From assembly GCF_057098645.1 (NCBI RefSeq), contig NZ_JBXSPU010000007.1: a stretch of DNA of 3,133 nt. One strand, written 5' to 3'. The notes under the pieces are model-generated. The model searched no databases, was not told where the DNA came from, and saw only the letters and a program-made list of their open reading frames with translations. A program made the position numbers and the translations under genes. This DNA comes from a plasmid. Of this stretch, positions 1-3,133 are shown piece after piece (position 1 is the first letter of the stretch; each line of letters begins with the position of its first letter).

Positions 1-189
1 GATTGTATTGTTTATCGCATTACGCAGAGCAACCTCAATCATCTGGACAAGACAAAAAAAATCGCCAGACAGATCTTGGTAGGCAACGTATGCCCCAACC
101 TTTTCTTGATCAGTAGCGCACCCAAGAAATGTTTCATAGAAAGATAATCTTGGTACAGAAATTGAGCTAATTAAACTTGTTGTATCCAT
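1..189 (-). CDS. 5' portion (N-terminal 63 aa) of an Abi_2-family (AbiD/AbiF-like) abortive-infection protein; ORF runs off the left edge
   Basis: Hand translation of the minus strand from ATG at 189 gives MDTTSLISSISVPRLSFYETFLGCATDQEKVGAYVAYQDLSGDFFCLVQMIEVALRNAINNTI with no stop before position 1. An in-frame stop lies 3 codons upstream of this ATG. The motif IEVALRN matches the N-terminal 'iEvalR' block of Pfam Abi_2, recalled from memory. Not in the supplied ORF track because the ORF is open-ended. Confidence 0.5.
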   Translation of the reverse strand, partial: MDTTSLISSISVPRLSFYETFLGCATDQEKVGAYVAYQDLSGDFFCLVQMIEVALRNAINNTI

Positions 190-290
190 GAAAACTCACT
201 TATCTCTTTACTATGAATATTTTTCAGACTACCATTACAACATTCGAGGAGCAGGCGAACTACCGTTTTTCTGTGTACCTCTAGAGCGTA

Positions 291-338
291 AAATATAACA
301 AAAAAGCCCACTACAGAGTGGGCTTTTTTGTTATATTT
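291..338. terminator. Bidirectional rho-independent terminator: perfect 22-bp inverted repeat with 4-nt loop
   Basis: aaatataacaaaaaagcccact-acag-agtgggcttttttgttatattt. GC core gcccact/agtgggc flanked by an A-run on one side and a T-run on the other, so either strand yields stem plus U-tract. Confidence 0.75.
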
Positions 339-1450: not shown

Positions 1451-2056
1451 CAGTGTTCCTACACCAGACAGGATGCAGAACGATATACCGGTGCGTAAGG
1501 AGAAAATACCACATAAGGCGCTCTTCCGCTTCCTCGCTCACTAACTCGCTACGCTCGGTCGTTCGGCTGCGGCGAGCGGTATCAGCTCACTCAAAGACGG
1601 TAATGAGGTTATCCACAGAATCAGGGGATAACGCCAAAAGAAACATGTGAGCAAAAAACAAGAACCCGAAAAAGGCCGCGCCGGTGGCGTTTTTCCATAG
1701 GCTCCGCCCCCCTGACGAGCATCACAAAAATCGACGCTCAAGTCAGAGGTGGCGAAACCCGACAGGACTATAAAGATACCAGGCGTTTCCCCCTGATGGC
1801 TCCCTCGTGCGCTCTCCTGTTCCTGCCTTTCGGTTTACCGGTGTCATTCCGCTGTTATGGCCGCGTTATCTCATTCCACGCCTGACACTCAGTTCCGGGT
1901 AGGCAGTTCGCTCCAAGCTGGACTGTATGCACGAACCCCCCGTTCAGTCCGACTACTGCGCCTTATCCGGTAACTATCGTCTTGAGTCCAACCCGGAAAG
2001 GCACGACTTATCGCCATTGGCAGCAGCCACTGGTAACTGATTTAGAGGAGTTAGTC

Positions 2057-2092: not shown

Positions 2093-2193
2093 ACAAGTTT
2101 TGGTGACTGCGCTCCTCTTAAGCCAGTTACCGAGGTTCAGAAACTTGCCGGTTGCTGAACCTTCGAAAAACCACCTTGCCGGGTGGTTTTTTC
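2093..2193 (+). ncRNA. RNA I (antisense copy-number control RNA)
   Basis: acaagttttggtgactgcgctcctcttaagccagttacc...aaccttcgaaaaaccaccttgccgggtggttttttcg parallels ColE1 RNA I ACAGUAUUUGGUAUCUGCGCUCUGCUGAAGCCAGUUACC...GGUGGUUUUUUUGUUU. Terminal hairpin ccacc-ttgccg-ggtgg followed by a U-tract. Confidence 0.75.
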
Positions 2194-2200
2194 GTTTTTA

Positions 2201-2229
2201 AGATTACGATGGGCGCGATATGAACTCAA
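2201..2229 (-). promoter_or_regulatory. RNA II promoter (-35 TTGAGT at 2229..2224, 17-bp spacer, -10 TAATCT at 2206..2201, minus strand)
   Basis: Matches pBR322 RNA II promoter ttgaga...gcgtaatct. Confidence 0.6.
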
Positions 2230-2299: not shown

Positions 2300-2328
2300 T
2301 TAAGATTTGATGTCAGATATGGTATAAT
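2300..2328 (+). promoter_or_regulatory. Strong sigma70-type promoter with extended -10 (-35 TTAAGA 2300-2305, 17-bp spacer, TGgTATAAT 2320-2328), directed toward the Abi gene 3' end
   Basis: Consensus TATAAT preceded by TGn, with a 4/6 -35 at optimal spacing. Sits in an AT-rich tract divergent from the RNA II promoter. Predicted start about 2334-2336. Confidence 0.55.
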
Positions 2329-2401
2329 TAACCATTCAAATAGATGGAATAAAAAGTCAACGCTGCCATTAGAACGGCATAAGAAATAGAGGATTATGAA
2401 A

Positions 2402-2545
2402 ATGAATACTAAAGTTCTTTTTGTGAAAAAAGCCTTGAAATCAATTACTTGCGCAATTCTTTCGCTCTTACCGGCTTTAAGTCGCGCAGTAACAGAGTTA
2501 CGTAGCCTTTCGGCTGCGCGACTTAAAGCCGGTAAGAGCTTTTGA
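2402..2545 (+). CDS. Hypothetical small ORF (47 aa from ATG 2402; 49 aa from ATG 2396) running through the hairpin
   Basis: MNTKVLFVKKALKSITCAILSLLPALSRAVTELRSLSAARLKAGKSF. AGAGGA lies 8 nt upstream of ATG 2402. Against coding: the ORF contains both arms of a perfect 26-bp inverted repeat and its stop sits in the post-stem U-run. Confidence 0.2.
   Translation: MNTKVLFVKKALKSITCAILSLLPALSRAVTELRSLSAARLKAGKSF
2464..2539. repeat. Perfect 26-bp inverted repeat with 24-nt spacer (large hairpin/cruciform). Intrinsic terminator for the plus strand, and possible 3' stabiliser for Abi mRNA on the minus strand
   Basis: gctcttaccggctttaagtcgcgcag (2464-2489) is the exact reverse complement of ctgcgcgacttaaagccggtaagagc (2514-2539). 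The spacer taacagagttacgtagcctttcgg holds the mini-hairpin taac-aga-gtta and the palindrome tacgta. A U-run cttttgattg follows on the plus strand only. Confidence 0.9.
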
Positions 2546-2569
2546 TTGTATCACATTTTTCCTTAAAAG

Positions 2570-3133
2570 TCAACCGGCTACCTTAAGCTCCCTGCACTTA
2601 ATCCTCCCTATAATCCCCATAACATACTCTATCGTGCAGCGTTCATAAAAGCGCCTATCGTGCCCAATAAACTCAATAAGTTCCTTTTTCTCGTTAGAGA
2701 CGATACTCAAGGCATTCATTAAAAAATTGAACTCTTTCAACATATTATTTATGGCTTGACTATGCGACTTGCAGTGGTGTTTTTTCCAAATAGGCTCATG
2801 GTGAAAAAGTCGATTCCTAAACAAAAGAACTTTATGAAACTCGTCAAACAACGCTTTAACCTTCATATCCCCCCCACCCAAAGGATTCTTCGCATGAGGA
2901 AATGTTTTTGCCTTGTTCTCTGGAGTCCAGATGTAGCACGGCCTTTGCGTATCCCTATATGGGGCATCTAACATATAAACCCAAAAGCCAAAGGTTAGAC
3001 GGCAAATAACATCATCATCCGTATACCTTACGCCACACTCATCTAGCGCTTTTTGTTTCGCATTTAAAACAAGATCCTGAGATTTCTTTGTTTGAGGTAT
3101 AGAGTCGTACCAAGCAGGCCCATGATTAGCTTT
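2570..3133 (-). CDS. 3' portion (C-terminal 187 aa) of an Abi_2-family (AbiD/AbiF-like) abortive-infection protein; ORF open at the right edge
   Basis: The track ORF 2570..2974 extends in frame, with no stop found by hand translation, to 3133: ...KANHGPAWYDSIPQTKKSQDLVLNAKQKALDECGVRYTDDDVICRLTFGFWVYMLDAPY... It contains LTFGFW (Abi_2 middle motif 'lsFG') and LFRNRLFHHEPIW (Abi_2 C-terminal motif 'RN..AHH..lW'). Stop is TGA at 2570-2572. Confidence 0.7.
   Translation of the reverse strand, partial: KANHGPAWYDSIPQTKKSQDLVLNAKQKALDECGVRYTDDDVICRLTFGFWVYMLDAPYRDTQRPCYIWTPENKAKTFPHAKNPLGGGDMKVKALFDEFHKVLLFRNRLFHHEPIWKKHHCKSHSQAINNMLKEFNFLMNALSIVSNEKKELIEFIGHDRRFYERCTIEYVMGIIGRIKCRELKVAG

Follow-up and report, generated by a model that had tools for sequence, protein, structure and literature searches.

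A 47-codon reading frame across a perfect hairpin on a small ColE1-type plasmid is most likely not a small-protein gene

What does it mean when a short open reading frame (ORF) runs straight through both arms of a long and perfect inverted repeat: a small protein, or a frame that happens to stay open across a structured RNA? The question is raised by ORF47, a 47-codon frame on the plasmid contig NZ_JBXSPU010000007.1 (assembly GCF_057098645.1), which lies beside, and points toward the 3′ end of, abi, the gene for a predicted AbiF-like protein. The window, that is, the whole stretch of DNA analyzed, is a complete circular ColE1-type plasmid of 3,133 bp from E. coli and Salmonella; plasmids of identical sequence include NZ_CP047017, NZ_CP103602 and further records from E. 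coli and Salmonella. All positions are those of this 3,133-nucleotide (nt) window, labels beginning with L denote comparison loci or contigs, and labels beginning with P denote database peptides. The NCBI Prokaryotic Genome Annotation Pipeline (PGAP) annotates ORF47 as a hypothetical protein (WP_152918943.1). Sequence comparison leads us to a different view: as a small-protein gene, ORF47 is most likely not a real feature.

An earlier note on this DNA had described the reading frame, its Shine-Dalgarno sequence, the inverted repeat and the stop codon, and each was found where the note had placed it. The elements of the unit and of its neighbor are these:

2402-2545, plus strand: ORF47, ATG at 2402-2404, 47 codons, TGA at 2543-2545
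2464-2539, no strand: perfect 26-bp inverted repeat, arms 2464-2489 and 2514-2539, invertible 24-nt spacer 2490-2513
2540-2548, plus strand: U-run TTTTGATTG, directly 3′ of the stem; with the hairpin, a putative intrinsic terminator
2300-2328, plus strand: sigma-70 promoter-like site, TTAAGA-17-TGgTATAAT, extended −10 TG
2336-2401, plus strand: AU-rich leader with AGAGGA, read from the sequence
2545-2573, minus strand: promoter-like site, TTGACT-17-TGaTACAAT, 10/12 in a consensus scan, overlapping the abi stop codon
2236-2569, no strand: lineage-specific orphan block of 334 bp, between the abi stop codon and the ColE1 RNA II promoter
2570-3133, minus strand: abi, 3′ part; the 250-amino-acid (aa) protein wraps the circular origin, stop at 2570
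1-189, minus strand: abi, 5′ part, ATG at 189-187

ORF47 spans both arms of the repeat, and its stop lies 4 nt past the stem, inside TTTTGA, the T of the TGA being also the last of the TTTT run (2540-2543). The Shine-Dalgarno sequence AGAGGA (2388-2393) stands 8 nt 5′ of the ATG at 2402; an in-frame alternative ATG at 2396 would give 49 aa. The predicted peptide is basic (+8) and partly hydrophobic. The hairpin is far beyond chance: as RNA it folds at −55.4 kcal/mol (z = −10.3 against shuffles). The stem is followed by UUUUGAUUG; a simple terminator scan, which admits loops of 3-8 nt, requires 5 or more T among the 8 bases following the stem and counts no more than 20 stem pairs, makes no call for this hairpin, because its loop of 24 nt falls outside the admitted range. 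Upstream, the promoter-like site at 2300-2328 scores 10/12 plus TG in a consensus scan, has a predicted start at ~2335-2336 and keeps its hexamers constant in all variants, and the leader at 2336-2401 holds no structure beyond that of shuffles (z = +1.0). The length of ORF47 is no more than chance and carries no evidential weight, since 13 ORFs in the window, mostly spurious, are 47 aa or longer, and one of the three frames is open across the hairpin on each strand.

RNA from the minus-strand promoter-like site (2573-2545) would start exactly at the base of the stem and point into the hairpin; no terminator is predicted for it. Because four consensus promoter sites were found in the region against 2.3 expected, this site may be a chance match.

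Searches with the ORF47 peptide led back to the same plasmids. An exhaustive HMMER search of 1.84 billion representative proteins returned three family variants and one spurious repeat protein, a word-indexed search of 5.8 billion clusters gave seven family variants and no outside relatives, and tblastn against 72,556 plasmids (E ≤ 10) found the plasmid family and one chance match only. At the DNA level, distant blastn found the block 2236-2569 outside the family in none of the plasmids, 5,426 E. coli genomes and 50,697 phage records searched, and exact patterns from it were absent from the viral contigs scanned. In the databases searched the block is thus confined to a plasmid family of roughly 3.1 kb, in which ~1,000 contigs, of E. 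coli, Salmonella and metagenomic origin and from around the world, retain it. In L045 and L052, which represent two sister families of ColE1 plasmids, the abi stop is immediately adjacent to the RNA II promoter and the RNA I terminator, for which reason the block is most simply read as a lineage-specific insertion. It holds no tandem repeats. A 12-nt imperfect inverted repeat (2264-2275 / 2556-2567) was considered as possible ends of a mobile element and set aside, since it matches at only 10 of 12 positions and lies in AT-rich DNA.

Variable sites were counted in an alignment of the window with three diverged complete relatives:

abi: 3 of 753 (0.4%)
abi 5′ region, including a conserved motif described below: 0 of 107
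cer region: 7 of 312 (2.2%)
mob: 9 of 414 (2.2%)
block 2236-2569: 12 of 334 (3.6%)
ORF47, within the block: 5 of 144 (3.5%)

The block therefore diverges about ten times faster than abi (3.6% vs 0.4%). With additional contigs included, seven events are seen within ORF47, five of them non-synonymous and two synonymous; the resulting 71% compares with 75% expected for random substitutions. Among database peptides residue 16 is T, A or S and residue 19 is I, T, S, A or N. Given a neutral-like substitution ratio, fast divergence relative to abi and the variable codons 16 and 19, ORF47 is probably under no detectable constraint at the protein level.

The two variable codons lie in a substitution hot spot at 2447-2458, a quasi-palindrome (AC-TTGCGCAA-TT) in which positions 2447, 2448 and 2457 change, some of them in several ways. 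In the 2448G/2457C haplotype (L054, L060) the site becomes a perfect 12-bp palindrome, AGTTGCGCAACT. The hot spot looks like the product of template-switch correction rather than of selection on codons 16 and 19; template-switch mutagenesis at quasipalindromes is documented in E. coli (PMC7202029).

A second kind of variation touches the hairpin itself. The metagenome contigs L024 and L059 carry the 24-nt spacer in inverted orientation between intact arms, a change that rewrites 9 of the 47 residues of ORF47. The peptide predicted from the flip (…SRA-AERLRNSVT-ARLKAGKSF, 81% identity) forms a database cluster of its own (P0061/P0068-P0072), with six sequences on ~17 contigs, E. coli isolates with RefSeq accessions among them; the standard form is represented by 54 sequences on ~950 contigs. 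The proportion of flipped forms, ~17 of ~970 contigs, comes from assemblies and is not a measured rate. Flipped forms occur on at least four backgrounds at residues 16/19 (T/I, T/T, A/T and S/T), each with an unflipped counterpart, and this pairing indicates that spacer inversion has recurred. In all 27 complete E. coli records the spacer has the orientation seen in the window. Assembly artefact as the sole source of the flips was rejected: they are present in RefSeq isolate assemblies and on at least four backgrounds, and the 76-nt hairpin is shorter than typical reads.

Three further contigs depart from the standard form. L060 carries a 13-nt deletion in the loop that leaves both arms intact and shifts the frame to a 77-aa product; L061 has four uncompensated changes in one arm; and L062 (GCA_001893935.1, contig MOJD01000138) folds back at the large hairpin, the source of a 63-aa chimeric ‘protein’ (P0060), which reflects either misassembly at the inverted repeat or a plasmid dimer joined head to head.

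Template switching between short inverted repeats is reported both to homogenize the arms and to invert the spacer, and by such homogenization arm perfection can persist without selection (PMC8604942). We suggest that the same process explains the perfect arms and the flips of the large hairpin; perfection of the stem is, on its own, no proof of selection for RNA. The plasmid resembles known template-switch products in its identical arms, in the presence of both spacer orientations on several haplotypes, and in a second hairpin with an inverted loop; it differs in that the inverted segment is part of an annotated ORF, which is thereby rewritten, and in that the plasmid is a natural one of high copy number. 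The second hairpin is a small bidirectional terminator at 297-335 (loop 313-316), whose 6-nt loop has the opposite orientation (TACAGA vs TCTGTA) in L023, L024 and the complete plasmid NZ_CP148472. Because this unrelated hairpin flips too, loop inversion at perfect inverted repeats appears to be a general mutational feature of the plasmid and not special to the large hairpin. A site-specific invertase switch was considered and rejected: there is no recombinase among the annotated features of the plasmid, the spacer is 24 bp long, and the second, unrelated hairpin also flips.

The earlier note had doubted a protein function for ORF47, and the doubt is borne out by the lack of outside homologues, the neutral-like substitution ratio, divergence faster than that of abi, and flips and a loop deletion that spare the stem. 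It had also proposed asking whether homologues conserve the peptide or the base-pairing. Among micro-variants the stem is kept and the peptide is repeatedly rewritten; the comparison extends to micro-variants only, because no diverged homologue of the hairpin/ORF unit exists against which it could be made.

Our preferred reading, which we consider somewhat better than evenly balanced, is that ORF47 is an unconstrained frame in an orphan insert, that the insert gives rise to a convergent RNA of ~210 nt ending at a hairpin terminator, and that the unit, if functional, forms a barrier in cis. The predicted sigma-70-type promoter at 2300-2328 would drive this transcript toward the 3′ end of abi, and the transcript would end at the 26-bp hairpin and U-run (2464-2548). 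Perfect arms and two spacer orientations would arise from replication template switching and not from selection on a peptide. Any role of the unit would be exerted in cis and at the level of RNA: it would stop the plus-strand transcript, and convergent transcription could produce collision and/or a double-stranded-RNA barrier between abi read-through and the promoter of the RNA II primer. Transcription, termination at the hairpin and the barrier role are each something we infer. Ahead of the hairpin the abi transcript lacks a terminator, and the stem, read on the abi strand, is not followed by a U-run, so that the convergent unit may exert its effect in cis. A perfect duplex of 26 bp is long enough to be a substrate of RNase III. 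In its very stable stem with an immediate U-run, 3′ of a sigma-70-type promoter, and in the stop codon of a short ORF embedded in the terminator, the unit resembles intrinsic terminators; it differs in a stem of 26 perfect bp and a loop of 24 nt, far longer than is typical, and in a U-run of only UUUU followed by GAUUG.

Several observations weigh against this reading. A well-placed Shine-Dalgarno sequence, an open AU-rich leader, a strong predicted promoter and the PGAP call together make translation of ORF47 plausible, and it may be translated at some level. Both spacer orientations leave the frame open. The stretch 2315-2433 (119 nt, covering the −10 box, the leader and the first 10 codons) is free of substitutions (permutation P ~0.025); elsewhere the unit gives no hint of constraint, and this one would fit an RNA as well as the N-terminus of a peptide. 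The U-run is short, and the terminator is putative. Sister plasmids do without any barrier, and the proposed cis role is for that reason dispensable. As to the stem, complete plasmids show no substitution in 52 arm positions where ~2 are expected, a deficit that is not significant. All of the variation falls within ~97% identity and the counts are small; L060, with the frame-breaking deletion, and L061 are single short contigs of uncertain quality, and L062 is likewise doubtful.

The best-placed alternative, which we regard as unlikely, dispenses with function altogether: the block would be the leftover of an old recombination, its promoter-like site, ORF and hairpin would do nothing, and template switching would keep the arms identical. 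That the block is an orphan, diverges faster than cer and mob and is missing from sister plasmids fits such a relic well, and homogenization of arms requires no selection (PMC8604942). Against it, the block is kept in ~1,000 contigs worldwide, and this on a plasmid of 3.1 kb, the kind of replicon that tends to shed dispensable DNA and long perfect palindromes; the substitution-free 119 nt over the −10 box and leader also count against it.

Distinctly less probable is a young small protein, in which ORF47 would yield a basic (+8) peptide of 47 aa, possibly with a signal-peptide-like N-terminus, acting alone or modulating Abi. The signals that make translation plausible, with the good Shine-Dalgarno spacing, favor it, as do the first 10 codons, which never vary, and a frame open in both spacer orientations. 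Set against these are the absence of homologues, the neutral-like ratio, divergence ~ten times faster than that of abi, and flips that rewrite nine residues on at least four backgrounds. The best 19-residue Kyte-Doolittle window reaches only 1.65, with three lysines inside, and the frame is absent beside all diverged Abi homologues.

This last point leads to abi itself. In identical plasmids abi is a single coding sequence (WP_016249639.1). The protein matches the PADLOC model PD-T4-5 (6.6e-30) and, weakly, Pfam Abi_2 (1e-3) and PADLOC AbiD; its RNRLFH (Rx4H) motif is invariant across 30 homologues. The AlphaFold (AF2) model has a pLDDT (predicted local distance difference test) of 93, and among PDB structures the top fold match is 8VZ6, ‘PbAbiF dimer bound to ncRNA’ (ncRNA, non-coding RNA), with probability 1.00 and a template modeling (TM) score of 0.54, the next match having a TM of 0.23. 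A PDB profile search with the Abi alignment found nothing, and only fold comparison made the link to 8VZ6. From the fold match, the Rx4H motif and the PADLOC and Pfam matches, the modeled protein is assigned to the AbiF/D-like HEPN proteins. PD-T4-5 is a plasmid-borne, single-protein, toxin–antitoxin (TA)-like abortive-infection defence and a distant AbiF/D relative (Vassallo et al. 2022, PMC9519451). The PADLOC match is the likeness between the two; PD-T4-5 is a 314-aa protein of ECOR34 (RCQ99930.1) against 250 aa here, which by sequence makes the window protein a distant relative and not the same gene, and descriptions of PD-T4-5 include no counterpart of ORF47 or of the hairpin.

If the hairpin/ORF unit were tied to this protein it should be found with its relatives. 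The contexts compared were L045-L050 (67% identity), L063 (57%), L052/L026 (56%), L064 (56%), L065 (54%), L051 (53%), L066 (52%), L002 (48%) and L067 (45%), plus about 35 more distant ones. No comparable unit was found downstream of abi in any of the ten lineages (45-67% identity) or the ~35 distant ones. The earlier note had suggested that ORF47 could be a small partner or antitoxin-like protein of the Abi gene; the suggestion finds no support, as those ten lineages lack the unit and, where upstream DNA exists, a different, covarying small RNA (sRNA) adjoins abi. Judged by its distribution, the unit is neither the antitoxin nor an obligate partner of the AbiF-like protein.

The sRNA gene lies on the other side of abi, outside the hairpin/ORF unit:

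~207-337, plus strand: conserved sRNA gene, divergent from abi; RNA of ~90 nt at ~242-332
207-212, plus strand: −35 TTTACT of a conserved promoter-like pair
230-235, plus strand: −10 TACCAT of the same pair
246-281, plus strand: three motif helices with compensatory changes and invariant G-U pairs
298-331, plus strand: covarying terminator of 13-15 bp and U-run

Its core, a motif of ~50 nt, is more conserved than the protein and is present in every homologue of at least 45% identity for which there is upstream DNA; the carriers are the window, L045, L002, L026, L051 and L063-L067, with two tandem copies in L002. In homologues a promoter-like pair, TTTAC(N)…TAnnAT, is kept ~35 nt 5′ of the motif. 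A covariance model has exactly one match in the window (240-293, 73 bits), with none in the block 2236-2569 and none beside Abi homologues of 32-39% identity. Modeled on the abi strand, the motif has 90% of its cells paired and five compensatory pairs, and none of 500 shuffles reached the score; the exceptions are almost all A-C/C-A, and this strand was rejected. The motif is assigned to the plus strand because the consensus fold is −23.1 kcal/mol there vs −1.7 on the abi strand and because 103 of 104 motif cells pair, with two invariant G-U pairs; the covarying terminator and U-run follow directly. The sRNA is absent from Rfam: searches of the whole window (E ≤ 1) and of 190-345 (E ≤ 10) gave RNA I and chance matches only (miRNA and leader models that fit any hairpin) and no abiF motif.

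In the AbiD/F group the antitoxin is established to be an RNA encoded next to the gene and better conserved than it (PMC13064643, PMC12373285, PMC12737573). By analogy the sRNA at ~207-337 is a candidate RNA antitoxin or partner of the PD-T4-5/AbiF-like clade. The plasmid shares with AbiF/AbiFr and the RCd22 type III TA system described in the same papers an AbiF-like protein as neighbor, the Rx4H motif and a structured, gene-adjacent RNA more conserved than the gene. It differs in that described AbiF ncRNAs are co-directional with the toxin gene, whereas the sRNA here is a separate element, transcribed away from abi and unmatched by Rfam RF03085. The hairpin unit differs further: it sits downstream of abi in convergent orientation, lacks tandem repeats, is not co-conserved with the protein and shows no match to the abiF motif. 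The Abi homologues L004 and L007 (35-37% identity; Vibrio, Rheinheimera) have in common another conserved block, ~150 nt upstream of the gene, GTGAGCCACC…GGTGGCTCTTAAACTCGCTACCTGTTGTCAATACT…GAGGACAGGGCTATCACAAC, which suggests that each Abi subclade may have its own associated non-coding element.

The remaining alternatives give the hairpin unit a regulatory part. It is improbable, in our estimate, that the hairpin transcript serves as a lineage-specific second regulator of the AbiF-like toxin, whether as a translation-sensing antisense switch or as an RNase decoy, with the flips providing two RNA/peptide forms. Still a little harder to credit is a type I TA-like module, with ORF47 as the toxic peptide and an antisense RNA from the minus-strand site at 2573-2545 overlapping the 3′ hairpin. 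In par/Fst of pAD1 and in txpA/RatA the paired RNAs have a common terminator or overlapping 3′ ends. The likeness here lies in the small size of the ORF, in the long stem-loop at its 3′ end and in a candidate antisense promoter aimed at the hairpin; the promoter-like sites converge on the hairpin, the ORF is basic and sits on a high-copy plasmid, and RNase III would accept a perfect 26-bp duplex as a substrate. The differences are that ORF47 is unconstrained, that it has no transmembrane-type helix and that the antisense RNA is a consensus match only. No hydrophobic helix is uninterrupted, the longest uncharged run being ~13 residues, and the hydrophobic residue 19 is freely T, S, A or N. The module is found in no other context, unlike typical mobile TA loci, and the minus-strand promoter, possibly a chance match, is followed by no terminator on its strand.

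We give less credence again to a translation-sensing attenuator or antisense regulator, in which translation of ORF47 would melt the terminator, the plus-strand transcript would repress abi, and shut-off of translation by phage would free Abi. The geometry is suggestive, as a ribosome terminating 4 nt past the stem would hold the 3′ arm open and the unit converges on abi, and Abi systems require tight repression (PMC12373285, PMC13064643). However, a single hairpin dominates, no antiterminator fold is predicted, the leader is unstructured, codon content is unconstrained, and homologues repress Abi without the unit. The anatomy thus lends no support to an attenuator, an idea that the earlier note had also raised: no co-directional gene lies 3′ of the hairpin, where the plus strand is antisense to abi. 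Pairing in trans of the plus transcript with abi mRNA was considered separately and rejected, the best duplex being no better than those of shuffles (82% of shuffles are better). Least credible of all is a decoy, the hairpin RNA being an auxiliary, lineage-specific inhibitor of the AbiF-like RNase and a second RNA antitoxin on a high-copy plasmid: the unit is directly beside abi with a strong predicted promoter, and AbiF inhibition is reported for the unrelated cos hairpin of phage sk1 (PMC13064643), but the unit is not co-conserved with Abi, is unlike the conserved sRNA motif, whose covariance model is silent in the block, has no match to the Rfam abiF motif, and, being a perfect duplex, lacks the sort of single-stranded bulge with which the AbiF active site is blocked (PMC12737573).

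The rest of the plasmid completes the setting. Its annotated features are mobA, rop, ORF47, abi and a 37-aa ORF at the origin only; the other landmarks are:

2095-2195, plus strand: RNA I, Rfam match
1256-1450: rop
minus strand: mobA
~2201-2229, minus strand: inferred RNA II promoter, TTGAGT…TAATCT, placed from the position of RNA I

The 37-aa ‘replication initiation protein’ (WP_071790583.1, PGAP; 1927-2040, plus strand) lies within the ColE1 RNA II/origin region and is almost certainly a spurious call. At ~430-460, in minus orientation, is GGTGCGCGTAA-GGGGAG-TTATGGTAAAT, recognized by eye from the ColE1 cer consensus, which we take to be a cer-like Xer recombination core. The block 2236-2569 was considered as a cer site and rejected, the cer-like core sitting elsewhere. 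The plasmid is a mosaic: rop and the origin (1062-2235) differ by 13-17% among family members where abi differs by 0.4%, a disparity that indicates replicon exchange by recombination with other ColE1-type plasmids. In L058 (NZ_CM132959 chromosome, 3376872-3385092) the entire plasmid is integrated in an E. coli chromosome, with IS26 on either side and adjoining nfsB.

For the family as a whole, an ORF annotated by PGAP in hundreds of records (WP_152918943.1, WP_016249640.1 and relatives) behaves as non-coding and should not be taken for the partner of a defence toxin. Template switching at a perfect inverted repeat would generate peptide ‘variants’ of 81% identity in the databases. Were a regulatory role of the hairpin true after all, a defence toxin would be seen acquiring a second layer of RNA control. 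The more valuable result, although incidental, is the conserved sRNA of ~90 nt, which is a sensible antitoxin candidate for a single-gene ‘TA-like’ defence family.

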